A DNA stretch of 64,000 nt from an uncultured Methanoregulaceae archaeon (GCA_963701095.1 OY969564.1:544001-608000), one strand, 5' to 3'; shown: positions 4,774 through 57,593, counted from the stretch's first letter. Program-made: numbers and translations. The notes: a model not told the origin generated them from the sequence alone.

Positions 4774-4946
4774 TTTTTTTCCTCACCTAAAAGAAATATA
4801 TTCATGAGAGAATAAACGTTGTTGTCTTTTTTTACACGAAACGGCATATGGGGAATGACCGGAATTCTATAAACACGTCAGAAAAGAGTCCCCATAACGA
4901 AACTATATGTAGAGTCGAGCGAAAATCCATAAACAGAGGGGTAACC

Positions 4947-6978: not shown

Positions 6979-6988
6979 GGCACACAAG

Positions 6989-7930: not shown

Positions 7931-7932
7931 TC

Positions 7933-13592: not shown

Positions 13593-13653
13593 AATTTTTA
13601 TAGCACCCATGTCTTTTTTTAATTTTTGGTTATTTTCATAAAAGAACTCATTT

Positions 13654-28200: not shown

Positions 28201-29331
28201 ATTTTGTCGGGAAAGAATCTGGTCAAACGCGCTAAGTGCATCATCATACCTGCTCAGGTAGATGCAGGAGACGCCTCGGCCATAGATAGCCTCTTCGTTA
28301 TCCGGTTCGGCTGCCAAAGCCCGGTCAAAATCCGCAACCGCTTCCTTAAACTTTTTCAGGTATCGGTTCGCTTTTCCCCGGATAAAATAGATCCTGACGT
28401 TTTGCGGTGCGAGCTCTGCCGCTTTATCAAGAGCGTATGCAGCGTCCTCGTACCGACCCAGCTCAAAAAGAGAATATCCTTTGTAGATCCATGCATCCGC
28501 AACGAGAGGATTTTGTAAGATCGCCTGATCGACAGACTTCACTGCTTCTGCATACTTACTGGTTCGGAACTGGGAAATACCCCGGATTATCCAGATATCT
28601 GCATGTTCGGGTTCGGATGCAAGAAATGTCGCAGCTGCATCCGCAGCTTCTGCATAGCGTTCCTGTTTTGCAAGGATGAACGTCCGGTAATACCATACCC
28701 ATACATCAGAAGGATCGAGGGCGTAAGCTTTTTCAAAAGCATCGAGGGCTTCTTCAAATCTCCCGCTGTCATACAGGGAGATGCCCATGTTGTAAAACGC
28801 CTTTGAATACCCGGGAATTAACGCGATTGCTTTTTCGTAGGCCGTAATGGCCTCTTCATGCCTGCCAAGATCTGCCAAGGCAATAGCTTTGTTGTAATAC
28901 ACTTTTGCGTGGTTGGGATCAATGGTAAGCGCATGATCATATGCCGATATTGCATCCTGGAACCGGCCAAGTTCGTAAAAGGCAATGCCCTTGAGGATCC
29001 ATGCCTCAGCGTTGTCGTATTTGAGGGCGATAAGACGATCGCAGGCATCAAGTGCTTCCTTGTTCCTGCCAATCTGTGCTAACGTGGCGGCCTTGTTATA
29101 CCATGAATTAATGTCAGATGGATCGAGGGTAAGCGCACTATCGTAGGATTCGATAGATTCCTCATACCTGCCAAGATCATACAGTGCGATGCCTTTGAAA
29201 TAATGGGCTTTTGGCAGGCGGGGAAAAAGCGTGAGTGCCCGGTCAAACATGACAACCGCCTCTTGGTGTCTGCCGAGATCATAAAGTTCGATACCCTGCC
29301 GCATCAGTGCTTCAGCATCACTTCTGCTCAT
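16275..29331 (-). CDS. Giant tetratricopeptide-repeat protein (~4,351 aa, ~128 TPRs); frameshift at ~23562
   Basis: Both ORFs (1930 aa and 2414 aa) are uninterrupted 34-aa TPR arrays (W..KG..L..LG.Y.EA...FD.AL...P). Removing one base beside AGCT 23564-23567 fuses them in register (YELGDYSEVIDACDHVLVLNPSF). Confidence 0.88.
23295..24923. repeat. Near-identical 816-bp (8 x TPR) tandem duplication inside the giant TPR gene
   Basis: ccctgggcggccaatgc occurs at 24071 and 24887 (offset 816). tcatacaatgcaagaccc occurs at 23464 and 24281 (offset 817, spanning the extra base). End points are approximate. Confidence 0.9.
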
Positions 29332-33591: not shown

Positions 33592-34496
33592 TTGGATATG
33601 GTACTTGAATTCCTGATGTATAAGTTCGGTATCCGGGCTCTTATTGGAGGGCTGATCGTTGCCGTCACCTGCGCAAGTCTCGGAGTATTTATTGTACTGC
33701 GCCGGCTGTCCCTTATTGCAGATGGCCTTGGCCACGTCGCTTTCGGTGGTATTGCCCTTGGATTCTGGACAGGGATATATCCCCTCTATACGGCTGTTGC
33801 CTCAGTCATTGCCGGATCGCTTGGAATCCATGCACTTGGCCGGCTCCGGGTCGCCTCAGATGCAGCGATAGCTATTATGTTCTCTGCCGGCCTCGCAATC
33901 GGCGTTGTCCTTATTAGTTTAGCACAGTCTGCACCTGCCGATCTCCTCTCATACCTGTTTGGGACTATCCTTGGAATCAATGACAATGATGTCATTCTTG
34001 CAGCCTGTCTTGGGATCATTGTGCTTGTGCTCCTTTCCCTTTTGTGGAAGGAATGGATCGCTATAACCCTTGACCCGGATTTTGCCCGGTCGCCGGGATG
34101 CCCGTATCCATTCTTGAAATACTCTTTACGATCCTTGTCGGACTGACTGTTGTCGTCACTACACGTCTTGTCGGTGTGCTCCTTGTGTCAAGCTTGATGG
34201 TCATACCGGCAATAGCAGCAATCCAGCTCCGGCTCCCTTTCCGCAGGACCGTATTTGCAGCGCTGTGTATGGCAATTATTTCAGTCATTGTTGGGCTCCA
34301 GCTCTCCTTTTCGTATAACCTTGCGTCTGGAGGGGCAATCGTTCTTGTCACCATTGTTTTCTTTATCCTAACAACACTTGTATCCCGGCTTTTACCCCGT
34401 ATCAAACGGGAACTCCCGGTTGAACCCTGGGAACACCAGTGCCTGGTACCTCTGTATGAGCCCGCTGATAAGAAAAACGGTGAAAATAAGATATAA
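33592..34496 (+). CDS. znuB: Zn/Mn ABC transporter permease; frameshift near 34089
   Basis: LGVFIVLRRLSLIADGLGHVAFGG, LLSYLFG, DPDFAR|VAGMPV, VGVLLVSSLMVIP. The two ORFs join at CCGG 34086-34089. Confidence 0.88.
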
Positions 34497-38226: not shown

Positions 38227-39534
38227 ATGGAAGCAAAGAGCGAACGAAAAGACGGCGTACTTATCTTTTTTATCAACGGACGGCTGGATGCATTCGGTGC
38301 TCAGCAGCTGGATGAGTGGATAAAAGGAACCCTCCAAGATGACGATAAAGAACTTGTAATCGATTTATCCGGATCTACGTATCTTTCAAGCGGCGGGCTG
38401 CGAACTTTTAGTATGCTTAAAAAAGAGATGAAACGCCGGAACGGGCGCTTTGCACTTGCAAATGTGGGAGAATATCCAAAAAAAGTGCTTGATATGGCCG
38501 GGTTCTCCACGATTCTTGAGATCTTTCCAACAACTGAGACCGCAGTAGAAGATATGAGAAAAAAGAGAAAAAACCCGACCCTTTTTAACGAAATCTTTTA
38601 CAAGAAGATTGAAGAAGAAGGGGTCTCTCTTATTATTGAACCTGGCTGGATGATCAGCCCGCCAACGCTCCGGATTACGGGAGATCTTACAAAAGTCTTG
38701 CATGCCCGGCTTACCGAAGCAGACATAAGGGAAAAGCAGTTTTCCGAGATTACGTACTCACTTGGTCTCGGTGCACTTGGAGCCAATAAAAAAGAGGCCA
38801 TGCCTCTGCTCGGTGAAATGATTACCCTGTACGGCTCTATGGTCTGGCTACCTACAGACGGTAATAACACCCCGGACTTTCTTACACCAATGGATACCAA
38901 AGGAGATGTCCCGGTGTACACAGGGTATAATGTAACGCTTGACGGCCCGTTCAACGAGTACCTTACCCTTGACACTGTGGATCCCAATGGCGTCAGTTTG
39001 GGTGACATTTATCGAACTATCTTTTCCAGTGCCAGGAACAGGGTTAAAATCTATAAAGGAGTCGTCGCGGTTTCCATCTGGGGTGTGATTGCCGGTGTTG
39101 CAAGTTCGGGAATTAAAAAAGCGCCTGTTGCCCAATCGTCACTTCCCGCAAAAACAACGATTATGGACCCGGCGTACTCGGCACAGTGGATGGCTTCTGA
39201 TACTAGTATGTCCTATAAAGGAGACACACTGGTTAGTTTTGGTTTTGGGATTGACTGCGAATATACCACAGCAGGCTTCAAACAGGAGCATCTCGATTCC
39301 CTGTTCTACACAAATCCTGCAAACAAATCCTCCTCAAAGATGATGTACCTTCACAACCACGGTGTAATCTTCCGTGGTGTCCCCTACGACGCATCGCTTG
39401 ATTTAAACACCCAGGTAAAAAAGATCATCAACGAAGCCACCTTTGTGGATATGCGCCATCTCCTGGACAGCACCCGGCTTCGCCGTGCAAAGATCGGCGT
39501 TGCTTATGTCCAGGATATCGTCCGGGAACCCTGA
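38227..39534 (+). CDS. STAS (anti-anti-sigma) domain fused to a ~320-aa C-terminal domain
   Basis: N-terminal GRLDA..A...DLS..TYLSSGGLR...KKVLDMAGF; C-terminal domain with HNH and RHLLD motifs. Confidence 0.85.
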   Translation: MEAKSERKDGVLIFFINGRLDAFGAQQLDEWIKGTLQDDDKELVIDLSGSTYLSSGGLRTFSMLKKEMKRRNGRFALANVGEYPKKVLDMAGFSTILEIFPTTETAVEDMRKKRKNPTLFNEIFYKKIEEEGVSLIIEPGWMISPPTLRITGDLTKVLHARLTEADIREKQFSEITYSLGLGALGANKKEAMPLLGEMITLYGSMVWLPTDGNNTPDFLTPMDTKGDVPVYTGYNVTLDGPFNEYLTLDTVDPNGVSLGDIYRTIFSSARNRVKIYKGVVAVSIWGVIAGVASSGIKKAPVAQSSLPAKTTIMDPAYSAQWMASDTSMSYKGDTLVSFGFGIDCEYTTAGFKQEHLDSLFYTNPANKSSSKMMYLHNHGVIFRGVPYDASLDLNTQVKKIINEATFVDMRHLLDSTRLRRAKIGVAYVQDIVREP

Positions 39535-39543
39535 AAATAGTGA

Positions 39544-39978
39544 TCAAGAAACCGCATCTTTTTGCTTTTTTTTCGTGAAGATCAGGATATTCTTTTCGTC
39601 TTCATACCGGTACGTGACGGTATCAGTAACCTGACGGACCAGATAGATACCAAGGCCCCCGGTTTTGCGTTCTGCAATTGAAGAGGTAATGTCTGGATCG
39701 GGTACGGTTAAAGGGTTAAATGGCGGGGCTTCGTCAACAATCTCTACGGTCAGGAGATCCGTATCTGCTATGCTATGAATGCTGATCAAACCTGGACTAC
39801 CACAAAAACCATGTCGGATGATATTAGTAATGATCTCTTCAACGGCGAGCTGGATATCAAGAACTGCCTGATCGCAAAAACCGGCTAGTTGCATGAACTG
39901 TTCAATCTCATGTGCAACAGCAGGCATCGCATCGAACCGGGCAGGAATTACCATGTCTGCAGTAGCTGCCAGGATCAC
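39544..39978 (-). CDS. RsbW/SpoIIAB-like Ser/Thr kinase (HATPase_c_2)
   Basis: LAVEEIITNIIRHG, DEAPPFNP, ERKTGGLGIYLVRQ. Strong GGAGGAGGTG RBS at ~39977-39986. The track's longer start at 40188 is unlikely. Confidence 0.88.
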   Translation of the reverse strand: MILAATADMVIPARFDAMPAVAHEIEQFMQLAGFCDQAVLDIQLAVEEIITNIIRHGFCGSPGLISIHSIADTDLLTVEIVDEAPPFNPLTVPDPDITSSIAERKTGGLGIYLVRQVTDTVTYRYEDEKNILIFTKKKQKDAVS

Positions 39979-40175
39979 ACCTCCTCCAGATATGCTCGGT
40001 ACCTCATTCCTCTGGCTGCTGGCATAAGCTATCCCTGATATGATATACAAACATCTACCATAAAAAGACGGCTTAACGACAGAATGGATTCTACGAAAAA
40101 GGGAAAGATTATCTCTGTACAGAAAGGATAGCTTTAGAAGACGCCCAAACAGCGCCTGTCTGGGAGGAATGACTC

Positions 40176-40532
40176 GTGGATATAACAACTACTACCCATG
40201 ATACTGCAGCCATTCTTACCGTGAAAGGTCGTGTGGATGCTTTAACTGCCGGTGACCTCGAAAGTGCTATTAATACTATCATTGACAAGGGCGACCGGTG
40301 TATTATTCTTGATTTTTCCGGACTTACCTATATTTCAAGCGGCGGCCTTCGCGTCCTTTTGGCTACAGCAAAAAAACTTCAGAACAATGGTGACCGTTTT
40401 ATGCTCTGCGGCCTCTCTATCGATGTGCAAAAGGTCATGAATCTTGCCGGTTTTACAGCAATCTTCTCTATCTATTCCTCAGCATCCGAAGCTCTAGACG
40501 CAGTAAAAAAACCAGTAAAACCCCATTCCTGA
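40176..40532 (+). CDS. STAS anti-anti-sigma factor (RsbV/SpoIIAA-like)
   Basis: GRVDA.TA, LDFSGLTYISSGGLRVLL, QKVMNLAGF; GGAGG RBS. Confidence 0.9.
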   Translation: MDITTTTHDTAAILTVKGRVDALTAGDLESAINTIIDKGDRCIILDFSGLTYISSGGLRVLLATAKKLQNNGDRFMLCGLSIDVQKVMNLAGFTAIFSIYSSASEALDAVKKPVKPHS

Positions 40533-43784: not shown

Positions 43785-44738
43785 TTACTCTGATTCGGGC
43801 ATATTGAGTATCGTCCGTATCTTCTGTTGGGTTTCCTTTGGTGTTCCTGTCGTATTTAGCAGATAGCAATCTGTCCGTTCGACAAGATCCCGGATATATT
43901 GATTCCGGAGCGTGGTTTTACGTGCTTCTTTTACTAGAAGATGCGGATTAAAGTATTCGTTCGCCTCGAAGAATGCACAGGCATCCTCTTTCTCCAGCTC
44001 GCACAGGGTTCGCGAATCAGCCGTGTCCCGGTGCAGGACGACAAGTGTGGTTAGAGTCGTAAGAGGTAACAGCCGGCCTTTTCCTACCACCCACCTGATA
44101 TCAGCTACAGCCCTTCCATCTGCATCATACTCATTTGCAGCAACAAGACCGTCGAATTCCTTCCAGATTGCAGAAAGATCCTGCCGGATGTAGAAATTCC
44201 GTTCCGAGCCGTATGCAAGAATCTCCGGACCGAAGATCCGGGTAAAGAACCAATCGTCGGAAATAATCCGGGCGCACGGATCGCGAAGAAGACCATACGT
44301 CTGGGTGGTCTTTCCCGCACCGGAAACCCCGACCATGCCAAGGCCTTTTCCTCCGATATCTACACAGGCTCCATGGATTGAGCTGATACCATGTTCGTCC
44401 TCAAGAATATCGCCGCAGAGGCCAAGTGCAATTGACTTGATCCAACCGTAGTAGGTAAAGTTGAACAGAAACGCGGTCTTGGTGTATGGGTCGAATTGTA
44501 CGGTGTTTTCCTCGTATGATGGATCAGAAAACACGTACAACCTGCCGTGAGACCGGATATTCTGGGACATCGGGGAAAAGTTCTCCTGCCATGTCTCAAG
44601 CAGTGTTCTGTTGTCAGAAATCAGTTTGATACAACAACCGAATATCTCCGATTTGATCTCGTACTTTATCCGGGGTGCACAACGTACGGCGAGCTGCTCT
44701 TTTTCTTCAGGGGAAATCAGGAGTATGGTATAGGGCAT
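43785..44738 (-). CDS. HPr-kinase/PEPCK-like P-loop protein
   Basis: IHGACVD..GKG...GVSGAGKTT and ISDDW motifs. Confidence 0.7.
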   Translation of the reverse strand: MPYTILLISPEEKEQLAVRCAPRIKYEIKSEIFGCCIKLISDNRTLLETWQENFSPMSQNIRSHGRLYVFSDPSYEENTVQFDPYTKTAFLFNFTYYGWIKSIALGLCGDILEDEHGISSIHGACVDIGGKGLGMVGVSGAGKTTQTYGLLRDPCARIISDDWFFTRIFGPEILAYGSERNFYIRQDLSAIWKEFDGLVAANEYDADGRAVADIRWVVGKGRLLPLTTLTTLVVLHRDTADSRTLCELEKEDACAFFEANEYFNPHLLVKEARKTTLRNQYIRDLVERTDCYLLNTTGTPKETQQKIRTILNMPESE

Positions 44739-44884
44739 CGAACGACCTCACATATGATGATCTTCATTCTTGATAAGCCGCCTACCGGTATAGGATGCTT
44801 TCGGTCGGGAGAAAGTCAGCCCGAACAATAAAAAAATAATTTCGAACCAAATCACAAAAAGAAGTATTCCAGGAATAATAGAGG

Positions 44885-45586
44885 TTACGATTGTATATGG
44901 CTGCCGTCGCAGAACGGTTTGTTTCCGGATTTCCCGCACCGGCAGAGCGTAACACGGTTCCTGACAATGTACGGTTTGCCCTCTTCAGAAGTGACTGGTA
45001 TGCTGCCTCTTACCCAGATAGGGCCGTGCTCCCCCCGAGGTGGGTATTCGATAAGTGCAATTGACTTTTCCAGTTCCGGCTCGATAATTTTTCCGGTTTT
45101 CTTGTCCCGGATCACAAGTCTTCCTGAGGGACAGTGGCATGATTCTTCAATTGCCGTTGATTTTGCCTTCGGGACATCCGAGGCTTTGGTGAGGTTCCAG
45201 ATCCCACCGGCCCGCATGCAGAACCGAGCATGGACACAGAGGTTCTCGAAATCATCCAGTTCAAGTTCGGGCCCCGATATGACCCGGGGGTGAAGGAGAT
45301 ACGATTCGTTTCCAGCAGTTTCTTCACCGTTAAAATGGATCTTCACGTGCGTTCCGTCACAAAACGGCTTATTCTGTGAATGGCCGCACCGACAAAGGGC
45401 ATACATTTCTTGTTCAGGAAATTGTTTTACCTTTCGCCAGGTATGGCAGTTTCCTTCCTTGTCGTTACAGATCTCTTCCTGTTGCAAAGGAACGTTCCCC
45501 GTGACAATATAGGGGCCATTCTTCGTTACGGTAATCTTCATAGAATCGGTTTTTGGTTCCTGATTGTTTTTGGGTATTTCTGTCAT
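44885..45586 (-). CDS. CDGSH iron-sulfur protein (two CDGSH domains flanking a divergent Fe-S domain)
   Basis: LCRCGHSQNKPFCDGTH and LCRCGKSGNKPFCDGSH; central CVHARFC...CPSGRL. Confidence 0.9.
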   Translation of the reverse strand: MTEIPKNNQEPKTDSMKITVTKNGPYIVTGNVPLQQEEICNDKEGNCHTWRKVKQFPEQEMYALCRCGHSQNKPFCDGTHVKIHFNGEETAGNESYLLHPRVISGPELELDDFENLCVHARFCMRAGGIWNLTKASDVPKAKSTAIEESCHCPSGRLVIRDKKTGKIIEPELEKSIALIEYPPRGEHGPIWVRGSIPVTSEEGKPYIVRNRVTLCRCGKSGNKPFCDGSHIQS

Positions 45587-45742
45587 GGAGATTATTCCTG
45601 TCCCTCTGTAAATATGTACCTTCTTTGTTACAATCTTGAATTGCCCTGCCGGAGAATAATGGTTTTCTAGGTTAAACCCGGGAAAATGAAAGGAGGATAT
45701 GATGGGTAAAAAACGACATCATAGGGAAAAAGAGGGGGTATT

Positions 45743-46300
45743 TTATTGATTGAACTGTATGTCAAAGTAGATGCTTTTTCCTGATGCTCTAAGGGGGATC
45801 CCGTAAGCAACGCTGCAACCCTTAAGATATCCGGCTTTGAGGGCCACAAATCCCGCCGTGAACATTATCCGGTTGTCGACATTATGGATCGATGCCGTCT
45901 TCACTGCTGATCCAACGGCAATACCAAGGTCAGATATCTTGAGAACACAGTTAGGTCCGGCATACGCAAAGTCCTTGTTCTTCCGGGTCTTCTGCGCTTT
46001 TACCATGTCTGCGCATGTTGAATGCCCGCAGCCGCCGCAGTTGATGCCAAGTGTTTTTTGACCCTCGACACCGATAAGAACCGTAGCATCGCTTGCTTTC
46101 ACCTGTTCACCGTTGATCCGGAGAAAATCCATACCGGTCTCTTTTGCGGTTGCTATCATTTTGTTCCCGAGTGCCGTCTGTTCTTTACCGGAGAGCACTT
46201 CAATTTTTATCGAGTCAAGGCCGCAGGCTTTCGGTGCTGTTCTTGCAGCAAGCGCCATGAGACCAGCAACATTCATTACTGCATCAGATTCAGTTGTCAT
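45743..46300 (-). CDS. Ferredoxin-domain-containing protein (DUF2148-like)
   Basis: AARTAPK..G.D, NCGGCG..TC, GPNC...DLGIAVGSA, DNRIM, GKSIYFD. Confidence 0.8.
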   Translation of the reverse strand: MTTESDAVMNVAGLMALAARTAPKACGLDSIKIEVLSGKEQTALGNKMIATAKETGMDFLRINGEQVKASDATVLIGVEGQKTLGINCGGCGHSTCADMVKAQKTRKNKDFAYAGPNCVLKISDLGIAVGSAVKTASIHNVDNRIMFTAGFVALKAGYLKGCSVAYGIPLRASGKSIYFDIQFNQ

Positions 46301-46673: not shown

Positions 46674-46984
46674 GATATTCCACTTTCTCCTTTCAACTCT
46701 GGATTTTACAAAATAGATGTCAGCTGGGGATTATATATAATAGAAAAATTGGTAGGGTTCTTTTGATTAAAGGGATGGTAGGGTGTTTGAACCACCGGGT
46801 TATATGGAAATTTCCGAACATCCCGACAATCCCAAAAACGATGTGAAACAGATGGATTTGCCAGAAATCTAAAAAACACTACCGTATATCCTGATGTGAC
46901 GGAACCTATAAACGGGATCAGAAGAAATTTATGCAAACTCTTATCTCCGGTTGCTGGGAATCCTACAATATCATTTCCGGCACG

Positions 46985-47638
46985 ATGAGATACCGCACCG
47001 GGAGCGCGACAAAAACGTCTGCACCATCACCAAAGACACAACCTGAACTCTCCGGAGAAGATGCCACCCTTCTTACACTTTACGCCCTCGCCGGAGAGGA
47101 ATGCGGAGAACTCATTACGCTTCATCCCCATCTCTTCCGATTCATCCGTCAACACCTTTTAGCGCTTGGACATACCGCTCTTACCCACCCGGCCTCACAT
47201 GATGTTGAAGTCCGGGAACTCTCCATCCATGAAATGAACCGTGCCGAAGAGGAACTCTGGATCCACGATAACCGACAGAAAGCAGATACCGAGACTGACC
47301 GGTTGTTTGCGGCGTTCTCCGGGACGCAGCTTGTCGGTGTAGCACGTTGTTCCCGGCACCCGGACTGGTATGAAGTTGACAGCGTCTATGTGCTCGAAGA
47401 ATACCGGCATCAGGGATTTGCCAGGCTGGTCATGAAACGGCTTATCGAAGAATGCGGCCGTCATGAAACACTCCATCTGCATGCAAAGCCGGAACTAGTT
47501 GATTTCTACCGGGAGATGGGGTTTGTTCCGGTCCAGTCCCCAGAGATACCAGAAACGATCCGGCCAGAGTCTGATGCATATGGCTCCGTGGAAAACAGCA
47601 CCTGTTCAATGAAACGCGACCCTTCTCCCGGCTCATAA
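46985..47638 (+). CDS. GNAT-family N-acetyltransferase
   Basis: VGVAR, VYVLEEYRHQGFA..VM, FY..MGF motifs; start uncertain. Confidence 0.8.
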   Translation: MRYRTGSATKTSAPSPKTQPELSGEDATLLTLYALAGEECGELITLHPHLFRFIRQHLLALGHTALTHPASHDVEVRELSIHEMNRAEEELWIHDNRQKADTETDRLFAAFSGTQLVGVARCSRHPDWYEVDSVYVLEEYRHQGFARLVMKRLIEECGRHETLHLHAKPELVDFYREMGFVPVQSPEIPETIRPESDAYGSVENSTCSMKRDPSPGS

Positions 47639-47747: not shown

Positions 47748-49696
47748 ATGATCGGCCTTTTCTTCAATATCGTAATCCTCATCTTCCTTGCCGGCATCGC
47801 CATCGCTCTCTTGGGCGCGGGGCGCGACGACTCCGTCATTCGCACACTCTCGCTTGCCTGCACTGCCGGAGCTTCGGCACTGCTTGCCCTTTTTGCGCTT
47901 TTCATACTTGTCACCGGTACTTCTGTTACCGTTATCGCATGGCAGCCATTTCCCGGCTTTCAAATTGCATTCTTTATTGACCGGCTTGCTGCGTTTTTCC
48001 TCTTTCTTATCAGCATAGTTACCGTGTGTGTCGCAACATACAGCACGGAGTATATCGATCATATGGACGGAGGAACCCGGCGCAATCTTTTGTGCGGCTG
48101 CATCGGTACCTTCGTGCTCGCAATGGTCCTTGTCGTGGCCTCACAAAACACGATCTCCTTTCTCTTGTTCTGGGAGCTCATGGCAGCGATCTCCTTTATT
48201 CTCGTGATGTATGATTATACGCACGCCGAAACCAGAAAAGCAGGGATCTTTTATTTTGTGATGACACAGCTCTCTACCCTCTTTGTGATATTTGGGGTAA
48301 TCGCTCTTTTTGTCGCAACAGGTTCGTTTGCAATCGCCCGGATAACGGTACCGGCCGCGTCGACGCCACTGGTAACTGCCGGGTTTCTTTCGCTCTTTAT
48401 CGGTTTTTCCATAAAGGCTGGCATCATCCCTTTCCATAAATGGCTCCCATATGCCCACCCGGCAACCCCAACACCGGTCTCAGCACTCATGTCAGGTATT
48501 ATGCTCAAGGTAGCAGTCTATGGTCTTCTCCGGTTCGTCATTACCGTTTTTTCTCCGGATGCCTGGTGGGGTGAGTTGATACTTGCCGCTGGTATAACAT
48601 CAGCAGTCCTCGGAGTCATCTATGCGATCAAGGAAGATGACATAAAAGGCCTTCTGGCATACTCGAGCATAGAAAATATCGGCATTATATTTGTTGGTAT
48701 AGGCCTCTATGTCATCTTTTCCTGTTCAGGACTTGCCCTGCTTGCGACTATCAGCCTGCTTGCCGCACTTTTCCACTCCCTTAACCATGCGTTGTTTAAA
48801 AGCCTCCTTTTCCTTACGGCCGGGTCCGTGGTGCACGCTACACATACGCGAGATATCGAAAAAATGGGCGGACTTGCCGGAAAAATGCCCCTAACCTCAG
48901 CCCTCTTTTTTACCGGTGCTGCTGCCATTGCCGCTCTTCCGCCGCTTAATGGTTTTGCGAGCGAGCTTTTGATCTATACGGCATTCTTTGAATCTGTCGC
49001 TGTCGTCAATCCCCTCCTCAAAGTAATCCTGTTTATATGTCTTGCTCTCTTTGCTTTGACAAGCGCTCTTTCCGCAGCCTGCTTTGTGAAAGCCTTTGGC
49101 TCCATTTTCCTTGCCAGGCCGCGGTCTGTCGCATGTGATAATGCGACTGAAGTGGGTCTCGCGATGCTCGCAGGCCCTGCTGTCCTCGCTGCATTATGTG
49201 TGGGCCTTGGTGTCTTCTCGTACCAGATTTTTACTGCGTTCGGTTATGTCCTACCAATACCTGACCTGCTGGTAATAAGCCTCCTTCTCCTATTCATGGG
49301 ACTACTTACCTACGGCATCCTGTATTTTACCTCTTTCCGGGAAAGCAGGATCAGTGAAACCTGGGGATGTGGTGCACGATCCCTTTCCTCGTCGACAGAA
49401 TATACCGGCCACGGTTTCTCGGAACCAATCGTTACCATCTTTTCATCCATATACCGGACAAAAAAGACCAGCACCAAAACCTATTATGATGACCATGACC
49501 TCATCTTTGATTCGGGAACCGCTGAATCCGGTTGGTAAAATTCTTCGAGGAATACCTGTACCTGCCCATTTCCCGGGGAGCTACCCAAGCTGCAAGCTTT
49601 ATCGTCCGCATGCAGAACGGGTGCCTTGACACGTATATCCTCTATGTTTTCTTGGCTGTTGTGGTCGTCATCGTTTTGTTAGGGGTGCTTTTATGA
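47748..49696 (+). CDS. hyfB: HyfB/EhrA-like antiporter-type membrane subunit; frameshift near 49526
   Basis: FWELM, GFSIKAGIIPFHKWLPYAHP, LAYSSIENIG, NHALFK, PPLNGFASE, TWGCG. Restoring one A extends to ...MQNG..DTYILYVF...LL* overlapping the next ATG (ATGA). Confidence 0.88.
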
Positions 49697-50634
49697 CCGC
49701 GGATTTTCTTATCTATGGTATCATCAATACGATTTTTGTCGTTCTTGTTGCCCCGCTGTTTGTGAGCCTTGTAAAGAAGATCAAGGCGTGGACACAGGGT
49801 CGGCGGGGTCCTTCAATCTTCCAGACGTATTATACGTTCCTGAAACTGTTCCAAAAGGAAGTCATCTTTTCCCCCAACGCGTCCTGGATCACCCGGGTCA
49901 CACCGTGGGTCTGCATTGCCGCTATCCTGACCGCTTCGCTCTTTGTCCCTCTGGTCTATGTGACTTCGCCGGCGGCAGGTATAGGAAATATCATCCTTTT
50001 CCTGTATCTCCTGGTGCTCGCCCGGTTCCTTATGGCCCTCTTGGGTCTTGATGCCGGGAGTGCTTTTGGCGGTATGGGCAGTTCACGTGAAATGAGTGTT
50101 GCAGCGGTCATAGAACCCACCACCATCATTGTCTTTGCTGCACTTGCCTTTGTCTTTAAATCGCTCAATATTATTGACATGGCAGCGACGGCCGCCACGA
50201 CCGGTACACCGGTTACCCCGACGCTGATTTTGCTTGGCATTTCCCTTTTCATCATCCTGATTGTCGAGACTGCACGTATCCCGGTTGATAACCCGGAGAC
50301 CCATCTCGAACTGACCATGATCCACGAAGGTATGATCCTCGAACAGTCCGGAAGGAATCTGGCAATTCTGGAGATCTCGTCTGCAATCAAGCAGACTGTC
50401 CTGATGGCACTCCTCATCAACCTCATTGTCCCCTGGGGGATAGCCACTTCGCTCCTGCCTTTTGTTCTTGCAACTGCAATCGTTCTTTTTATCATAAAAG
50501 GTGCCATTCTTGCCCTTTTCATGGGGCTCTTTGAATCGTCCATGGCAAAGATGCGATTCTTCAGATTGCCGAACCTTTTCATGATGGCGTTCTTTTTCTC
50601 GACGCTTATTATTATCATTGAGGTGTTTGCATGA
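49693..50634 (+). CDS. hyfC: HyfC/NuoH-like membrane subunit
   Basis: QGRRGPSIFQ.Y...KLFQKE, GLDAGSAFGGMGSSRE, ETARIPVDNPETHLELTMIHE. Confidence 0.92.
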   Translation: MTADFLIYGIINTIFVVLVAPLFVSLVKKIKAWTQGRRGPSIFQTYYTFLKLFQKEVIFSPNASWITRVTPWVCIAAILTASLFVPLVYVTSPAAGIGNIILFLYLLVLARFLMALLGLDAGSAFGGMGSSREMSVAAVIEPTTIIVFAALAFVFKSLNIIDMAATAATTGTPVTPTLILLGISLFIILIVETARIPVDNPETHLELTMIHEGMILEQSGRNLAILEISSAIKQTVLMALLINLIVPWGIATSLLPFVLATAIVLFIIKGAILALFMGLFESSMAKMRFFRLPNLFMMAFFFSTLIIIIEVFA

Positions 50635-51323
50635 CGGATCCTGCATATTTAAACGGTATCGTCAAGGTTCTGTTCGTCTGCGTGATTATTACGTCTGCGT
50701 ATATCATAACAACAAGAAACCTCATCAGTCTGGTCCGGGTATATGCACTCCAGTCACTTGCACTTGTCGCAATAGCCCTTTCACTTGCCTGGTACGAAGC
50801 TGATTCCGTCCTCCTTGCTATTGCTATCATTACGTTGGTTTTCAAGGTGTTCCTGATCCCTTACTTCATCGCGACCATTCAGGAAAAAATCCGGATCAAA
50901 CGGGATATTGACTTCCATTTCCTGAGCCCTACCAGTTCGTTGTTAATTTCGCTTGCTCTGATGATTGTCGTCTATATCATGCTCTCACGGATCTTCCCGG
51001 ACATGATGGTAAAAGGCAGTCTATTTTTCTTCGGGGCTGTTATCGGGATCTCGCTTGTCCTGATGGGGATGATGGTCACCTTTTCCCGTAAACGGGCAAT
51101 AACCAAAGTACTGGGCTACTTATCGATGGAGAATGGTGTTCTGCTTTTTGGTATTTTTGCCACCGAGCTTCCGTTCATAATTGAGTTCCTGATCATCATC
51201 GATCTTGTCATCCTCATTATCCTGACCACCATCCTTACCGTAGGGATCGATTCCACGCTTGAGGAGTACCATAACCGGCTTCACCGGTTCTATCTCTGGG
51301 AAGAACAGGAGGAAGCAACATGA
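50631..51323 (+). CDS. hyfE: HyfE-like membrane subunit
   Basis: YALQS, KVFLIPY, GYLSMENG, PFIIE..D; ATGA overlaps on both sides. Confidence 0.85.
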   Translation: MTDPAYLNGIVKVLFVCVIITSAYIITTRNLISLVRVYALQSLALVAIALSLAWYEADSVLLAIAIITLVFKVFLIPYFIATIQEKIRIKRDIDFHFLSPTSSLLISLALMIVVYIMLSRIFPDMMVKGSLFFFGAVIGISLVLMGMMVTFSRKRAITKVLGYLSMENGVLLFGIFATELPFIIEFLIIIDLVILIILTTILTVGIDSTLEEYHNRLHRFYLWEEQEEAT

Positions 51324-52801
51324 TCCTGATCGCTTTTGCCATCTGTGCCCTTGCTGCAATTGTGCTTGTTGCACTCAGCCACACCAACCTGCAGATGAAT
51401 GCAGCTGCGGTCGGGCAGTCAATTGTTTATCTTGCGATCACCGTTTACATTCTCCTCTTTGTCCAGATCCCGGTGAATAATTTCATCGTGGGAAGCGGAT
51501 ATTTCTTCATCGACCATCTCGGCCTTCTGGAAGTGATGGTTGCGACCTGTATTTTCCTTCTCGCAGCCATATATGCCCGGGGATATGTCAGTAATCTGCT
51601 GGCAAACCGTGAGCTGGAACCAGGCAGCCTGAAACTTTTCTATGCCTCCTGGTGCCTGCTTGAACTGGTAATTGTCCTTGCCTTTTTCTCTGACAATCTT
51701 GCGCTGTTCTGGATATTTGCAGAAATGACGACAATCCTTTCCGCGTTGCTGGTTGCCATTCTTTCAGCAAAGGAAAACATCGATGCAGCGCTCAAATATA
51801 TTTTCGTTGCATCGACGGCAATGATTTTTGCTTTTGTCGGTCTTATCTTCCTTTATGAGATATCACTCTCAACGCTTGGCACTGGTACGCTAAACTGGAC
51901 TGTTTTAATGCAGCGCGCTTCAACGTTTCCTGCCGGCATGGTGACTGCTGCATTTATGTTTGTTTTTATCGGGTTTGCCGCAAAATCCGGTATCTTCCCG
52001 TTCCATACGTGGCTTCCGGAAGCCCATGCAAAGGCCCCTTCAGCCGTGAGTGCCGTTCTCTCGGGCGTGCTCCTGAACATAGGAATCTATGGTATCATCC
52101 GGGTCTTTGCGATCGCTCATCAGGCCCATGACCTGGCTGTTCTTACCCCGGTACTCCTGATATTTGCCATTTTCACAATAGCTATTGCGGCAATCTCGAT
52201 GCTTGTCGAAAAGAACCTAAAAAAACTGATCGCGTTTTCAAGCATCGAGAATATGGGCATCATTCTCGCCGGTATAGCCGTGGCCTCACCGCTCGCAATC
52301 TTCTGGGTGCTTTTCCAGATTATCGGGCATGCCCTGACAAAAGCTTCACTCTTTTTCTCGGCCGGCATCCTGCACCGGCAGTACCGGAGCCATATTTCGC
52401 CGGATGCTCCTGATGATATTCATGACGTTTTTAAGTTTCAGCCGCTTGCTGCCTGGGGTATCATCCTTGGAGGCCTTTCAATCATCGGTATACCTCCTTT
52501 CATGGTATTCTTCTCAAAATTCTTTATCCTGCTTTCGCTAGGATCTCTCTCTCTAGGAACACTTGCGGTTGTCCTTGTCCTCCTTTTTATAGCTGCTGCA
52601 GCTTTCGGGTATTTCGTGATAAAGGCATTCTGTCGTACTACACCGTCCGGTGAAATTGACGACCTTGCAGCCTACCGGACCCCCCTTTCCATGGAAGTAC
52701 CCATCGTGATACTCCTTACCCTTGTCCTTATTCTCGGACTTATGTTTCCAGCTGGGGGCACCGCATTCCTTAACCAGATAGTGATGGAGCTGAAGTTCTG
52801 A
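51320..52801 (+). CDS. hyfF: HyfF-like antiporter-type membrane subunit
   Basis: WIFAEMTT, AALKY, GFAAKSGIFPFHTWLPEAH, AFSSIENMG, GHALTKASLF, PPF..F.SK. Confidence 0.9.
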   Translation: MILIAFAICALAAIVLVALSHTNLQMNAAAVGQSIVYLAITVYILLFVQIPVNNFIVGSGYFFIDHLGLLEVMVATCIFLLAAIYARGYVSNLLANRELEPGSLKLFYASWCLLELVIVLAFFSDNLALFWIFAEMTTILSALLVAILSAKENIDAALKYIFVASTAMIFAFVGLIFLYEISLSTLGTGTLNWTVLMQRASTFPAGMVTAAFMFVFIGFAAKSGIFPFHTWLPEAHAKAPSAVSAVLSGVLLNIGIYGIIRVFAIAHQAHDLAVLTPVLLIFAIFTIAIAAISMLVEKNLKKLIAFSSIENMGIILAGIAVASPLAIFWVLFQIIGHALTKASLFFSAGILHRQYRSHISPDAPDDIHDVFKFQPLAAWGIILGGLSIIGIPPFMVFFSKFFILLSLGSLSLGTLAVVLVLLFIAAAAFGYFVIKAFCRTTPSGEIDDLAAYRTPLSMEVPIVILLTLVLILGLMFPAGGTAFLNQIVMELKF

Positions 52802-54383
52802 TGAGCGTACAAAAACTACAGCACGAAAATATCGCCATAACAGTAGTCCAGGAAATCTTCGGTTCTGATGCTGTACCTGCCCGGATCTCGATTGGATGCA
52901 GCGGAGAATGCTCTATAAGCCCGACCACACCGGAATTTGACCGGGCCATTCTCATCCTTGCCAGACATAAATTTGTCCTTATAGGCCTGTTCTGTTCCGA
53001 ATGCCCTGACGGTTCAGGCCATATGCTCCGATATGTTTTTGAACACCGCGACAACCTCCTCGTTCTTGTCAGGCATATCGCCGGAAAACAGGCTATGTCT
53101 GTCGCGACGATCTTTCCCTCGGCTACTTGGCCGGAGCGGGAATGCCGTGATCTGTTTGGCATCAGGTTTGGGGGTGCGTTTGACACCCGGCGCCTTGTAC
53201 TTCATGAAGAATATCCGGAAGGATTCCATCCGCTGGAAAAATCCTGTCCCAACATACCGGTTACTCCAATAAACGCGACAGATACCTATCAATTCCGGAT
53301 GGTCAGTGGCGAGGGTGTCTACCAGGTCCCGGTCGGACCGGTCCATGCCGGTATTATCGAGCCCGGGCATTTTCGGTTCAGCGTGATTGGAGAGACTGTG
53401 TTCAATCTCGAGATCCGCCTGTTCTATACCCATCGCGGTATTGAGAAACTGGCGGAAGGAAAGAATCCGGCAGACTGCATGAAAATTGCCGAAGCCGTCA
53501 GCGGCGACGAATCGGCGGCAAACGCGACCGGGTTCTGTATGGCGGTTGAACGGCTTTCCGATATCATGGTGCCTGACCGTGCCTGGCACCTTCGGACTGT
53601 TTTCTGCGAGTCCGAACGGATCTGTTCCCATCTCGGCGATTTAGCTGGCATGTTGACCGATGTCGCGTTCCCTCTTGGAGCAAGTCAGTTTGCGGTATTG
53701 CGCGAGGAGATGTACCGCGAGAACGAGAAGATTTCCGGCTCCGGTTTCTCCGGGGCATGATCTGCCCCGGTGGCGTGATGCAGGATATTCCTGATGGAAC
53801 TCTGGCCGGTTTCAAGGATTATCTTGTGCGGTTCAAAAAGCAGTTCAGGATCGGGTTATCCATAGTACTTTCGACGACATCGGTGATAGACAGGTTCGCG
53901 CAAACCGGTATTATCAGAAAGCCACTGCTTGCGCCACTCAATATCACCGGGCCGGTCGCACGTGCATCGGGAGGGGAACGGGATGTGCGGGTGGACCATT
54001 CGTACGGCATCTATGACAGGTTTGTTCCTACGCTCCATCTTCTGAACGATGGCGATGTTCTTGCCCGGTTTACGGTAAAGGCTGCAGAGATCCTGGATGC
54101 ACTTGACCTGATTGAACGGGTTATCGCCGCAATTCCTGACGGGCAGATTTGCAGTACTGAACAAATCCGCGACGGTAGTGCACTGGCACTCGTGGAATCA
54201 CCCCGGGGGCAGAATCTTTGCTGGGTTGAGATACAAGAAAAAAAGATCTATCGGTACAAAGTAAGGACTGCATCGTACTGCAACTGGCTTGCACTTGAAC
54301 ACGCTGTACCCGGCAACATTATCGCAGATTTCCCGGTGATCAATAAAAGCCTGAACCTGTCATATGCCGGGACAGATCTCTGA
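52801..54383 (+). CDS. Fused NuoC/NuoD-like large subunit (HyfG/EhrL) without NiFe ligands; frameshift near 53741
   Basis: WPERECRDLFGI, VGPVHAGIIEPGHFRF, HRGIEK, ESPRG, IADFPVINKS. The CxxC sites read VSGDES and NLSYAG. Confidence 0.88.
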
Positions 54384-54394
54384 GGTGAGATAGG

Positions 54395-54913
54395 ATGGTT
54401 AACGCATTTTCCTGCCTGCTAAAAAAGGAAGTTACCGGTACTCTTCCGTTAAAAGATGATGAAATTGAAAAACTTGGTTATGAAATCCGGCAGGAGATCA
54501 ACGCCCGGTTCGGCAGGAGTCTTGCTATCCGGGAGCTGGATGCAGGTAGTGACAATGCGGCAGAGATCGAAATAAACAACCTCAACAATGCGTTCTATGA
54601 TGTGGAACGTTTCGGTATCACGTTTGTAGCCTCCCCCCGCCATGCAGATGTCCTGATGGTAACCGGTGCTATTACCCACAATATGGCTACTGCTGCCCGG
54701 AAAACCTACGATGCAATGCCGTCTCCCAAGTTTGTCATTGCCGTGGGCGACGATGCCTGCAATGGCGGCATCTACCAAGGAACATACGCAGTCCTTGGTG
54801 GAGCAGACAAGATCCTGCCGGTGGATTTGAAAATACCCGGTAATCCACCGACACCTCTCAAGATTCTTACCGGTCTACTTGCCCTGATGCGATATGCCGG
54901 GAAAAAATCGTGA
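54395..54913 (+). CDS. NuoB/HyfI/EhrS-like small subunit with Fe-S cysteines replaced
   Basis: RSLAIRELDAGSDNAAEIEI, ASPRHADV, AVGDDA, IPGNPPTP. Confidence 0.88.
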   Translation: MVNAFSCLLKKEVTGTLPLKDDEIEKLGYEIRQEINARFGRSLAIRELDAGSDNAAEIEINNLNNAFYDVERFGITFVASPRHADVLMVTGAITHNMATAARKTYDAMPSPKFVIAVGDDACNGGIYQGTYAVLGGADKILPVDLKIPGNPPTPLKILTGLLALMRYAGKKS

Positions 54914-54989: not shown

Positions 54990-57593
54990 TTATTTGTTTG
55001 AAGTAAATCGGTACTTTCCCTTCTGAACGTTAATCTCGAACCGGGCACCTTTCCCGGGCAAACCGTTTTCAGTGATGGTACTACCGGTAATTGACAGGAT
55101 CTCACGTGACAGGAACAAACCGAACCCGGTGTTCTTCCCAAAACCCCGGGTAAACAGTCGTTTTTTATCTCCCTGATATATCCCCACGCCATCATCTTCG
55201 CAGATCAGGGCAAGCCCGGACGCCGCTTCCTGCGACCACACACGGATACAGGTCATAGCATCGCCACCGTACCTGAGCGCATTGTCGATGAGGTTATAGA
55301 ATACCTTCTCAAGAAGCGGATCTGCCAGGATCTCAAGATCGATTCGGTCGACTTGAACCTTCACACTCCTCATCGGAAGCTGTGTTGCAGCATGCATAAC
55401 AACCTCATTCACGTTCTGCCATGCAGCGGACTGTATCCCCATATCCTGATAATCCCGGGTGAACGCGATCTGGCGTTCAATCGTATCGATAACCTTCTCC
55501 TCTTTTTTGAGGAATTCAAGGATAGCCGGTTCCTGAATGTGCCTTCGGGAGAGTACCAGGTAACCTCGAAGGGAGAGCAGCTGGTTAAGAATATCGTGCC
55601 GGGTGATGCCGGAGAGGAGGTTGAGTTTCCTGTTTGCTTCCCGTATCGCATCTTCCATTATCCGGCGCCCGGTGATATCTTGAACGGTCCCGTGTAGCTG
55701 AACAACATTTCCCCCTTCATCGCATTTCACTCCTCCAAAGACATGGATCCACATACTCGTGCGATCGGCTCGGAAAATTTCCAGTTCAAGGTTGAATGGA
55801 TTTCCTTTGGTTAGCGCCGTTTCGATGGCTTTTTTGAGTTTATTCCAGCTCTCCGGAGTAAAATACCGTTCGAGTTCTGCATGAGTAGGAGCATGCCTTG
55901 GCGTGTCCTTTCTGATCATTCTGTAAAGTTCATCGGACAGAATAACGGTATCAGCATCCCGTGACCACTCCCATATCCCGATTTGAGCGAGACGGTATGC
56001 TTTATTTCGTTCTTCCTGAGCTGCCGCAAGCTGTTTATTTTTCTCCCGTAACTCAAGCTCTGTCTGCCGGTGTCCAGTGATATCGATGGCAACCCCAAGC
56101 ACCGCTGGTTTTTCGCAGCCCGGAAGAGAAAACGGGACTTTTGTTGTCTGGAGATGCCGTTGATTCCCGTACGCGTCAATATAGAGCTCCTCGGGAATGA
56201 ACTTGATCTGTCCTGTTGCAATGACCTCCCGATCATCCTCCAGCATCTGGCGGAGTTCTTCCTCATCCTTGTGAAAAAGCGCATGAGACTTCCCTTCGAG
56301 TTCGTTGACCGTAGTATTATATCCCTCTGCCACAGCCCGGTTTGCAAGGATATACTTTCCATCATAATCCTTGGCAAAGATCATGTGTGGAACGAGATCG
56401 ATAATCTGCCGCAGCTGGGCTTCCCTGCTTTTGAGTGCCTCCACATATTGTTTACGTTCGGTGATATCTCTGGCTTCTATGATGAGCAACCGTATGGAAT
56501 TGTCAGCTCCGAATACTGGTTTGAGGGAAAAGTCAACCTGCATCGTGGTATGGTCCAAACCCTGCAGCTCAGCTTCATAACGGACAAAGTTCCCGGAAGC
56601 TGCGTTGCGGATCCCTTCCTGTAACTCCCTGATTCCTGCCTCATCTCCCTTCCACCAAGGAGTTTCCCAGAAGGGGAGATTTATAACGTCTTCCATCCGA
56701 GCACCGATAAAACTCAGTGCCGTTCTGTTGGCATCAGTCAGGATTCCCTCCGGTGTCATCATACCAGTAAACTGGAAGGTACTGTCAAAGATTGCCCGCA
56801 TCTTGCTCTCGCGATCCCTGAGTGCTTCTTCTGCCTTCCTGCGTGCCGTCACATCACGGAAGACTACATGCACAGCGGGTTTATTCCTCCAAGCAAACGG
56901 TCGTGCTACCACATCCACATCGATAACGCTCCCATTCTTCCGGATAAATTTTTCCTGAATAACCGGCAGGTTCTCTTCAGTTGCAGATACTGATCGCTTA
57001 CGCACCAGTTCACGGTAAGCAGGGTGCACAAAAGACAGGAGTGGTTTCCCTATGATCTCATCGGATTTTTCTGCACCCATGAGTTTGAAGGCCGTGGCGT
57101 TTGCATAGACAATTAACCCATCCTGGTGAATCACAATACCGTCAAAGGAGGTTTCCACGAGGATCCGGTATTTCTCTTCACTCTCGCGCAATGCATACTC
57201 ATGAGCACGTTCTTCCTGTCTCCGCGAGACCGCCTGGCGGATCTTGTGCGCCAGCTCGGCAAACTGTGCCGTTGGATCTCCGCCTTTCTGGAGATAGAAG
57301 TCCGCGCCTGAATTAATGGCATCTATTACAACCTCTTCGCGTCCTCTTCCGGTAAACAGGATAAACGGGAGGGTATTTCCCGACCCTTTTAACATTTTTA
57401 GAAATGCGATTCCATCTATATCCGGCATCTTGTAATCGGAAATGATGGCATCGTATGTTTTAGTATTCAAAAGAGTAAGTGCATCCCGGGCAGAAGTAGT
57501 GATATCAATGCTGAACTGTCCGCTCTGCTCGAGAAAGAGTTTGCCTATTTCAAGCAGGCCGGGTTCGTCATCGACGTAGAGAACATTGTACAT
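54990..57593 (-). CDS. REC-multi-PAS sensor histidine kinase
   Basis: VLYVDDE...ISDYKMP receiver; about four PAS/PAC domains; ITRHDILN H-box; NLIDNA, DDGVGI and GFGLFL ATPase boxes. Confidence 0.93.
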   Translation of the reverse strand: MYNVLYVDDEPGLLEIGKLFLEQSGQFSIDITTSARDALTLLNTKTYDAIISDYKMPDIDGIAFLKMLKGSGNTLPFILFTGRGREEVVIDAINSGADFYLQKGGDPTAQFAELAHKIRQAVSRRQEERAHEYALRESEEKYRILVETSFDGIVIHQDGLIVYANATAFKLMGAEKSDEIIGKPLLSFVHPAYRELVRKRSVSATEENLPVIQEKFIRKNGSVIDVDVVARPFAWRNKPAVHVVFRDVTARRKAEEALRDRESKMRAIFDSTFQFTGMMTPEGILTDANRTALSFIGARMEDVINLPFWETPWWKGDEAGIRELQEGIRNAASGNFVRYEAELQGLDHTTMQVDFSLKPVFGADNSIRLLIIEARDITERKQYVEALKSREAQLRQIIDLVPHMIFAKDYDGKYILANRAVAEGYNTTVNELEGKSHALFHKDEEELRQMLEDDREVIATGQIKFIPEELYIDAYGNQRHLQTTKVPFSLPGCEKPAVLGVAIDITGHRQTELELREKNKQLAAAQEERNKAYRLAQIGIWEWSRDADTVILSDELYRMIRKDTPRHAPTHAELERYFTPESWNKLKKAIETALTKGNPFNLELEIFRADRTSMWIHVFGGVKCDEGGNVVQLHGTVQDITGRRIMEDAIREANRKLNLLSGITRHDILNQLLSLRGYLVLSRRHIQEPAILEFLKKEEKVIDTIERQIAFTRDYQDMGIQSAAWQNVNEVVMHAATQLPMRSVKVQVDRIDLEILADPLLEKVFYNLIDNALRYGGDAMTCIRVWSQEAASGLALICEDDGVGIYQGDKKRLFTRGFGKNTGFGLFLSREILSITGSTITENGLPGKGARFEINVQKGKYRFTSNK

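Follow-up and report, generated by a model that had tools for sequence, protein, structure and literature searches.

Membrane complexes that are related to hydrogenases but whose large subunit lacks the NiFe cysteines have been named Ehr since 2005-2013. A six-gene operon of this kind in M. hungatei (Mhun_1817-1822) was described by Anderson et al. 2009, who also reported homologues from two species of Methanosarcina (PMC2686161; this and the other papers on the family are cited from the portions of their text available to us). The gene set is named ehrABCDLS by Gunsalus et al. 2016 (PMC4704411), who list it among the membrane enzymes likely to reduce ferredoxin. In studies of Geobacter, Margulisbacteria, comammox Nitrospira and candidate phyla radiation (CPR) bacteria, Ehr figures as a NiFe-less relative of the hydrogenases with no known function (PMC7894505, PMC6349859, PMC10284858, PMC7304191), and some of them propose a formate dehydrogenase (FDH) partner. 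In the accessible open literature we found no statement that Ehr small subunits lack cluster ligands, although Coppi 2005 and Marreiros et al. 2013, which lay outside the search, may contain one. Here we analyze a stretch of 64,000 nucleotides (the window) from an uncultured Methanoregulaceae archaeon (GCA_963701095.1, OY969564.1:544001-608000), which carries on its plus strand, at 47748-54913, a tightly packed operon of the ehrABCDLS type. All eight canonical metal ligands of the encoded complex, four NiFe Cys and four [4Fe-4S] Cys, are lost.

The host is a Methanoregula-like methanogen that is present in soil metagenomes and whose genome forms one contig of 2.63 Mb with a completeness score of 86%. 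Open reading frame (ORF) calls and Pfam/NCBIfam matches gave the following six genes, with starts and stops that overlap by 1-4 nt where the genes adjoin.

47748..49696, plus strand: ehrA, HyfB/HycC/NuoL-like antiporter-type subunit, true length about 649 amino acids (PF00361, PRK08667)
49693..50634, plus strand: ehrB, HyfC/HycD/NuoH-like subunit (PF00146; match to 7z0s_D, E 2.4e-40)
50631..51323, plus strand: ehrC, HyfE-like small membrane subunit, syntenic in 14/14 fetched operons
51320..52801, plus strand: ehrD, HyfF/MbhH/NuoM-N-like antiporter-type subunit (PF00361, PRK08676)
52801..54383, plus strand: ehrL, fused NuoC/NuoD-like large subunit without NiFe ligands (PF00329 and PF00346)
54395..54913, plus strand: ehrS, NuoB/HycG-like small subunit without [4Fe-4S] ligands (PF01058)

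The products of ehrA and ehrD scored 852.9 bits against PRK08667 'hydrogenase membrane subunit' (cut-off 794) and 675.5 bits against PRK08676 (cut-off 511), respectively. The ehrC product gave no match in the Pfam scan of the window ORFs and reached 72.9 bits with PRK11492 'hydrogenase 4 membrane subunit', under the cut-off of 136. These families and their order are those given in an earlier note made from the sequence alone, which had read the locus as a hyfB-C-E-F operon with a fused NuoC/D and a NuoB-like gene and had placed it among the Ehr complexes; subunit families, gene architecture and the NiFe-less large subunit all bear out that placement. Its remark that a HyfH/NuoI gene is missing also stands, as Pfam and NCBIfam scans found no ferredoxin-type (Fer4/HycB/HycF/NuoI-like) ORF in the operon. 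Close homologues are publicly named 'Ni,Fe-hydrogenase III small subunit', 'NADH-quinone oxidoreductase subunit B' or 'formate hydrogenlyase'.

To locate the lost metal sites, we aligned the subunits residue by residue with the Escherichia coli formate hydrogenlyase structure 7Z0S (HycG, 7z0s_G; HycE; HycC; HycD, 7z0s_D). The four cluster cysteines of HycG align to Asp-53, Ala-56, Asp-120 and Asn-150 of EhrS, encoded by GAC, GCA, GAT and AAT, and the two NiFe cysteine pairs of HycE align to Ser/Glu and Ser/Gly in EhrL. The replaced positions are as follows.

53497..53514, plus strand: ex-NiFe L1 motif 'VSGDES' of EhrL, in which S234 (53500) and E237 (53509) replace both Cys
54354..54371, plus strand: ex-NiFe L2 motif 'NLSYAG' of EhrL, in which Ser (54360) and Gly (54369) replace both Cys
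54551..54562, plus strand: 'DNAA' of EhrS, in which D53 and A56 replace cluster ligands 1 and 2
54752..54760, plus strand: 'DAC' of EhrS, in which D120 replaces ligand 3 and Cys122 (TGC) is a conserved non-canonical Cys
54842..54844, plus strand: N150 in 'PGNPP' of EhrS, replacing ligand 4

The earlier note had reported both sets of lost ligands, the four codons and one leftover cysteine, and the alignments agree with it on each; Cys-122 recurs in 121/121 aligned rows. EhrL ends three residues past 'NLSYAG' and has no C-terminal maturation peptide. Ech and Frh clusters are present in the same genome, and the Ech small subunit EchC keeps all four Cys, so the organism makes normal enzymes of the same type. 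An AlphaFold (AF2) model of EhrS has a mean predicted local distance difference test (pLDDT) score of 88.9, with blocks over residues 41-160 at 90-97, and superposes on MbhJ (6cfw_J) with a root mean square deviation of 1.9 Å. The predicted fold is thus kept without the cluster ligands, and homology to those ligands would place Asp-53, Asp-120, Cys-122 and Asn-150 near one another.

As assembled, two of the six genes are broken, a point that the earlier note, right in counting six genes, had overlooked. The ehrL gene is cut into one ORF at 52801-53760 and a second, in another frame, at 53757-54383; the ehrA ORF ends early at 49538 while its NCBIfam model extends about 55 positions beyond. Both breaks trace to a single missing base.

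49525..49526, plus strand: 1-base deletion in ehrA, G missing after 49525; the G is present in the contigs and in the closest relative
53740..53741, plus strand: 1-base deletion in ehrL, C missing from a CCC run after 53740; the C is present in the contigs and in the relative

Short-read contigs of 4/4 public runs from two studies carry both missing bases; two of the samples among them are not the probable source, and one run comes from a different study. In the closest relative (locus L034, 85% nucleotide identity) exactly two frame-breaking gaps were found against the window, one base each, and every other gap in the coding region has a length divisible by three. Once the base is put back, ehrA reads through in the third frame as far as 49696, where it overlaps the start of ehrB in ATGA; its orthologue in L034 has 649 residues. 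The ORF at 49354-49629 was considered as the continuation of ehrA and rejected, as the true continuation lies in the third frame. The large subunit is in one frame in 26/26 orthologous loci that hold both halves. Since both bases are present in the contigs of all four runs, the frame breaks in ehrA and ehrL are assembly errors, and the operon therefore consists of six intact genes.

Other genes of the assembly are split in the same manner. Consecutive parts of one family lie in adjacent ORFs for a class I/II aminotransferase (window 236-694 and 856-1341, minus strand) and an ABC-3 permease (33592-34146 and 34098-34496, plus strand), and frhB is split likewise elsewhere in the genome (L002, 2232-2594 and 2464-3174). 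These split genes fit the 86% completeness score of a closed contig and, taken with that score and the two read-verified deletions, point to frequent indel errors in the assembly, which affect at least five of the genes examined. In a single ORF at 13050-14402 (minus strand), a HAD-type hydrolase domain (residues 21-201) is followed by a pyruvoyl-dependent arginine decarboxylase domain (residues 273-449); this could be a real fusion or a further assembly artefact.

The replacement of the ligands is conserved and under selection. Among the matches listed there were at least 120 EhrS homologues, 76-93% identical to the query; in the resulting 121 rows, query included, Asp-53 and Cys-122 occur in 121/121 and Asp-120 and Asn-150 in 117/121 each, and position 56 is Ala in 77 rows and Thr in 44. 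The possibility that close orthologues keep the cysteines, which the earlier note had raised against its own reading, did not hold, with Asp-53 found in 120/120 homologues among the matches listed. Pairwise Nei-Gojobori ratios of nonsynonymous to synonymous substitution (dN/dS; nine pairs) were 0.035-0.22 for ehrS and mostly 0.07-0.24 for ehrL, and those of the membrane genes fell in the same range, below 1 as the earlier note had asked of a maintained complex. All six ehr genes are under purifying selection. EhrS is the most conserved subunit, and the ex-active-site motifs are near-invariant. Clade-wide replacement residues, dN/dS of about 0.04-0.2 and the origin of the frameshifts in the assembly agree in showing a complex that is maintained and not decaying.

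An orthologue (at least 58% identity) was found in 28/201 sampled genomes of the order, namely in 12 of the 15 other members of the genus and in scattered members of three further families; the remaining hits are paralogues at about 40% identity. Gene order was identical in 14/14 fetched orthologous operons. A scan of species representatives recovered the same order and the D-x-D-C-N signature at 61-79% identity, the carriers being Methanoregulaceae metagenome-assembled genomes (MAGs), Methanosarcina, a Methanosarcinales MAG, Dehalococcoidales/Dehalogenimonas and Ca. Moduliflexus. Over 22 clade loci spanning Methanomicrobiales, Methanosarcina, Dehalococcoidia and Ca. Moduliflexus, the conserved motifs are 'GSDN..E.E', 'GDdAC.gG' and 'pGNPP' in EhrS and 'AE..SGDE' and 'iNKS.nlSYaG.DL' in EhrL. 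Homologues that share the replaced motifs thus form a clade with conserved synteny (14/14 operons, 22 loci), a point that the earlier note had proposed to check. The bacterial copies are nested within the archaeal ones in a concatenated tree, a sign of lateral transfer.

We then placed this clade within the wider Ehr family. All of 80 related loci have NiFe-less large subunits, with (S/A/V)GD at L1 (77 readable) and SY(S/A/T)(G/A) at L2 (79 readable). The small-subunit cluster Cys are all four kept in 61/80 of these loci, mostly from Proteobacteria and Verrucomicrobia with a few archaea and in the same B-C-E-F-L-S order, and are lost in 19/80, which comprise the window clade and lineages in which the small-subunit gene comes first (CPR bacteria, a Syntrophus MAG and a Bdellovibrionales MAG). 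Likewise, 27 of 150 representatives of the 50%-identity clusters nearest to the query (21 full-length sequences and 6 fragments) are without three or more of the four Cys; the detectable homologues number roughly 6600 in all. The loss of the small-subunit ligands that the earlier note had found unexpected is therefore real and not peculiar to this locus, since both sets share it; it marks large, old clades of Ehr complexes. The operon in the window is an ordinary representative of the Ehr family as already known, and its lineage has no recognisable redox centre. A tree built from 81 taxa and 1086 columns of five concatenated subunits resolved three well supported groups, two cluster-less (n = 24 and n = 9) and one cluster-bearing (n = 48); having no outgroup, it fits one or two cluster losses alike.

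Loss of the cluster is correlated with changes in the large subunit. Both cluster-less groups have Ile in place of the conserved Cys of 'DFP(L/V)CNKS' in EhrL and Glu in place of the Gly before 'SGD'. Between the cluster-bearing group and the window clade EhrS shows five fixed differences, three of which are ligands, and 40% of its columns are conserved in both. At the ex-ligand positions of 33 cluster-less loci there are two carboxylates in 29, three in 3 and one in 1, at positions that differ between cluster-less clades. The count was looser in the wider set of 150 representatives, mostly two or three with a range of 0-3.

The Cys of 'DFP(L/V)CNKS' in cluster-bearing EhrL sits five residues before the ex-L2 motif, and rhizobial cluster-bearing EhrL has a second Cys in 'NCSYSG'; the cluster-less groups have Ile or Leu at these positions. 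The first of these Cys may be part of the active site in the cluster-bearing relatives.

The residues of the membrane arm are retained. EhrD aligned with MbhH (6cfw_H) has the Glu of transmembrane helix (TM) 5, the Lys of TM7, the His/Lys of TM8 and the Lys of TM12, and EhrA aligned with HycC (7z0s) has the TM5 Glu, a TM7 Lys, the TM8 His/Lys and a TM12 Glu. EhrB aligned with HycD over its full length, acidic loop and channel motifs included, and the β1-β2 loop of EhrL, 'VGPVHAGIIEPGHFRF', is invariant in the clade. The three alignments bear out the earlier view that the charged membrane residues are kept.

With the ion-pumping parts kept, all metal sites lost and selection strong, the complex probably moves ions without electrons. 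Our favored reading, to which we give an even chance on the evidence of sequence, is that this Ehr complex is a redox-independent H+/Na+ translocator. It would work as an Mrp-like antiporter, exchanging H+ and Na+ (or K+), driven by a gradient, through EhrA, EhrD, EhrC and EhrB, with the EhrL/EhrS cap closing and tuning the cytoplasmic cavity above EhrB. The acidic pocket formed by Asp-53, Asp-120, Asn-150 and Cys-122 of EhrS beside 'SGDE' and 'NLSYAG' of EhrL might then supply a fixed charge, or a cation or proton site, in place of the cluster. More specifically, and tentatively, cluster-less Ehr may be a 'redox-dead' complex-I-type H+/Na+ exchanger in which each lost [4Fe-4S](Cys)4 (charge about -2) was replaced by two carboxylates at clade-specific positions, so that the coupling cavity would keep the electrostatics of the oxidised cluster, and which in Methanoregula could have assumed the part that the Mrp module plays in Mbh.

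The distribution of Mrp-type genes gives a weak hint in the same direction. A strong match to MnhG (PF03334) was found in 6/28 Ehr-positive and 107/173 Ehr-negative genomes of the 201-genome sample, lying, where coordinates were checked, about 3.6 kb from an Mbh-type NuoB paralogue. The only strong match within the genus is in one of its three Ehr-negative genomes (G179), and PF03334 gave no match in the host genome itself, which is scored 86% complete. The complementarity of Ehr and Mrp/Mbh is a phylogenetically confounded trend.

Several observations weigh against a redox-independent translocator. The anti-correlation between Ehr and Mbh is carried mainly by one family, and kin are not independent. 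In several genera it breaks down: both are present in g29, g5 and g12, and g18 shows counts of 0/4 vs 11/33. MrpE/F/G are absent from the operon and a NuoH-like subunit is kept, so that Ehr is not simply Mrp. The near-invariance of the ex-active-site motifs and the conservation of EhrS, the highest of any subunit, imply more constraint than a passive plug needs and fit a specific ligand or reaction. Ehr subunits of G. sulfurreducens are more abundant on formate (PMC7894505) and an FDH-Ehr link was proposed for Margulisbacteria (PMC6349859), which hints at a redox tie in at least other Ehr lineages. Transport, expression and biochemical data were found for no member of the family, and a listing of public sequencing runs showed no RNA run that contains the host.

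The constraint on the pocket fits a different and less likely account, in which the pocket would bind a ligand or cation or run a non-redox reaction (hydration, decarboxylation or a binding change) that drives or gates ion translocation, or is itself driven by the gradient, with a logic akin by analogy to the CO2-hydrating NDH-1/Cup or DAB complexes. In its favor, 'GSDN', 'GDdAC' and 'pGNPP' of EhrS and 'SGDE' and 'NLSYAG' of EhrL are near-invariant across phyla, cluster loss is accompanied by the Gly to Glu and Cys to Ile changes of EhrL (before 'SGD' and in 'DFP(L/V)xNKS'), exactly two carboxylates occupy 29/33 cluster-less pockets, and the EhrL coupling loop and the acidic loops of EhrB are retained. 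However, the pocket residues differ among cluster-less clades (D/A/D/N, T/E/G/D, T/C/D/D), which argues against one shared catalytic site, and no carbonic-anhydrase-like, carboxylase or ATPase domain occurs in or beside the operon.

That the complex is still a redox enzyme appears unlikely. It would need a non-canonical cofactor, for instance a metal at Cys-122/Asp-53/Asp-120, or a partner encoded in trans (FDH, ferredoxin or an F420H2 module). The invariance of Cys-122 in 121/121 rows and in the clade loci is consistent with a metal site, and Asp-ligated Fe-S clusters exist in other proteins. Sister Ehr lineages keep four Cys in 61/80 loci. Genome papers also treat ehr as ferredoxin- or FDH-linked (PMC4704411, PMC6349859), to which the formate response in Geobacter may be added (PMC7894505). 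Against this, the pocket holds a single Cys and other cluster-less clades have no pocket Cys (S/E/G/I/D, D/V/D/I/S and similar); the EhrL Cys conserved in cluster-bearing Ehr is Ile in the window clade; and with no NiFe site, ferredoxin-like subunit or input module, neither a path nor an acceptor site for electrons can be seen.

A mainly sensory, regulatory or scaffold role, such as a membrane-potential or ion sensor signalling to an adjoining histidine kinase or response regulator, is far less probable. Two-component or response-regulator genes do adjoin the operon in the window, in L046, in both Methanosarcina loci, in Ca. Moduliflexus and in Dehalogenimonas, but such regulators are very common in these genomes, the neighbors are not orthologous to each other, and it would be costly for a sensor to keep the complete proton-channel residues of both antiporter-like subunits. 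Finally, decay of a pseudogene cluster or a strain-specific loss, which two frameshifted genes of the six as assembled and the absence of every metal ligand might have suggested, is refuted by 4/4 runs without the frameshifts, 26/26 intact orthologous loci and dN/dS far below 1, in an assembly whose other genes are split likewise and whose one-contig genome is only 86% complete.

The surroundings of the operon were examined for possible partners. No redox-partner gene lies beside it in the window, and the flanks of five distant loci (L050, L051, L053, L054, L055) contain no FDH, ferredoxin, NuoEFG or shared gene; regulators, a P-type ATPase and housekeeping genes were found there. The nearest gene upstream is the following.

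46931..47638, plus strand: GNAT acetyltransferase gene, 110 nt upstream of ehrA (PF13673, PF00583)

Its product has an N-terminal extension of about 100 residues that belongs to no known family. A GNAT gene (37-80% identity) lies upstream in 7/14 fetched operons, which come from three families of the order, as well as in the MAG loci L048 and L049; it is not beside the Methanosarcina or bacterial ehr loci. Downstream are PAS histidine kinase/response regulator genes (54990-57593), with a family-B DNA polymerase also nearby. Control by a fluoride riboswitch was considered and rejected: in an Rfam scan of the window and 16 cluster-less loci (8 of the window clade and 8 others), only tRNA reached the gathering score.

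Further upstream, on the minus strand at 43785-46300, are genes for an AAA_33-like protein (43785-44738), a CDGSH-type iron-sulfur protein with Fer4_19 (44885-45586) and a DUF2148 ferredoxin-domain protein (45743-46300); no link of these genes to ehr was found in other loci. The window also contains a CO dehydrogenase/acetyl-CoA synthase cluster at 4848-11175 on the plus strand (CdhC, two CdhD-family genes and a RACo-type reductive activator), followed by a CooC/MinD-type ATPase at 12230-12997. Two adjacent giant proteins of 2414 and 1930 residues, almost entirely TPR repeats, are encoded on the minus strand at 16275-23519 and 23539-29331. At 38227-40532, an HATPase_c_2 (anti-sigma-kinase-like) gene lies between STAS-domain (anti-anti-sigma-like) genes, a type of regulatory module typical of Methanomicrobiales according to the available text of Anderson et al. 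2009 (PMC2686161).

What the analysis of this locus adds is that the apparent gene breaks are assembly errors and that the family splits into cluster-bearing and cluster-less complexes with correlated changes in EhrL; the split and these changes give a handle on what the cluster-bearing relatives do. A metal-free lineage with an ion-translocating arm and cap under selection would separate ion translocation from redox chemistry within the complex I superfamily, and the orthologue in genetically tractable Methanosarcina makes that separation testable. There is also a practical consequence, in that hydrogenase-type annotations, and counts of ferredoxin-reducing enzymes in the style of the sections of PMC4704411 available to us, inflate the hydrogen-metabolism inventories of peat and soil methanogens (Methanoregula).

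Set beside the known systems of this superfamily, the window operon falls outside the group 4 [NiFe]-hydrogenases (Hyf/Hyc/Ech/Mbh), having lost both the NiFe Cys and the proximal [4Fe-4S] ligands, and outside respiratory complex I and Fpo, with no N2 ligands, no NuoI-like ORF and only six genes. Its best relatives of solved structure for EhrL, EhrS, EhrB and EhrA are the E. coli formate hydrogenlyase/hydrogenase-4 complexes (Hyc/Hyf, 7Z0S), with which it shares a Hyf-like set of membrane subunits; unlike them it has no NiFe site, proximal cluster, HycB/HycF, formate dehydrogenase or maturation peptide. In Pyrococcus Mbh/Mbs (6CFW, 6U8Y), MbhJ has the closest fold to the EhrS model and MbhH is the best match to EhrD, whereas the three Fe-S clusters, the catalytic site and the Mrp module of those complexes have no counterpart here. 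The Mrp (Mnh/Pha) antiporter resembles the window Ehr in having two MrpA/D-type subunits with the full Glu/Lys/His set and no redox input, but the NuoH-like subunit, the NuoB/C/D-like cap and the absence of MrpE/F/G set Ehr outside the Mrp family.

The named Ehr complexes are much closer. Those of M. hungatei (Mhun_1817-1822) and G. sulfurreducens (GSU0739-45) have the same six kinds of gene and a NiFe-less large subunit, and no architectural difference emerged in a comparison that used their published descriptions and not their sequences. In the portions available, the Ehr papers mention the large-subunit cysteines only, whereas the window operon is also without the small-subunit ligands. Orthology to the named clusters has indirect support from Methanosarcina, for which operons homologous to that of M. 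hungatei are reported (PMC2686161, PMC4704411) and in which the orthologues identified here have the same gene order. The cluster-bearing operons of Proteobacteria, Verrucomicrobia and others, which we take to be the rhizobial hyqBCEFGI type, have four [4Fe-4S] Cys, the Cys in 'DFP(L/V)CNKS' and the Gly before 'SGD', all of which the window Ehr has lost. They form a separate clade (support 1.0) and yet share with it the B-C-E-F-L-S order, the 'SGD..' and 'SY(S/A)G' motifs and an EhrS that is 50-57% identical.

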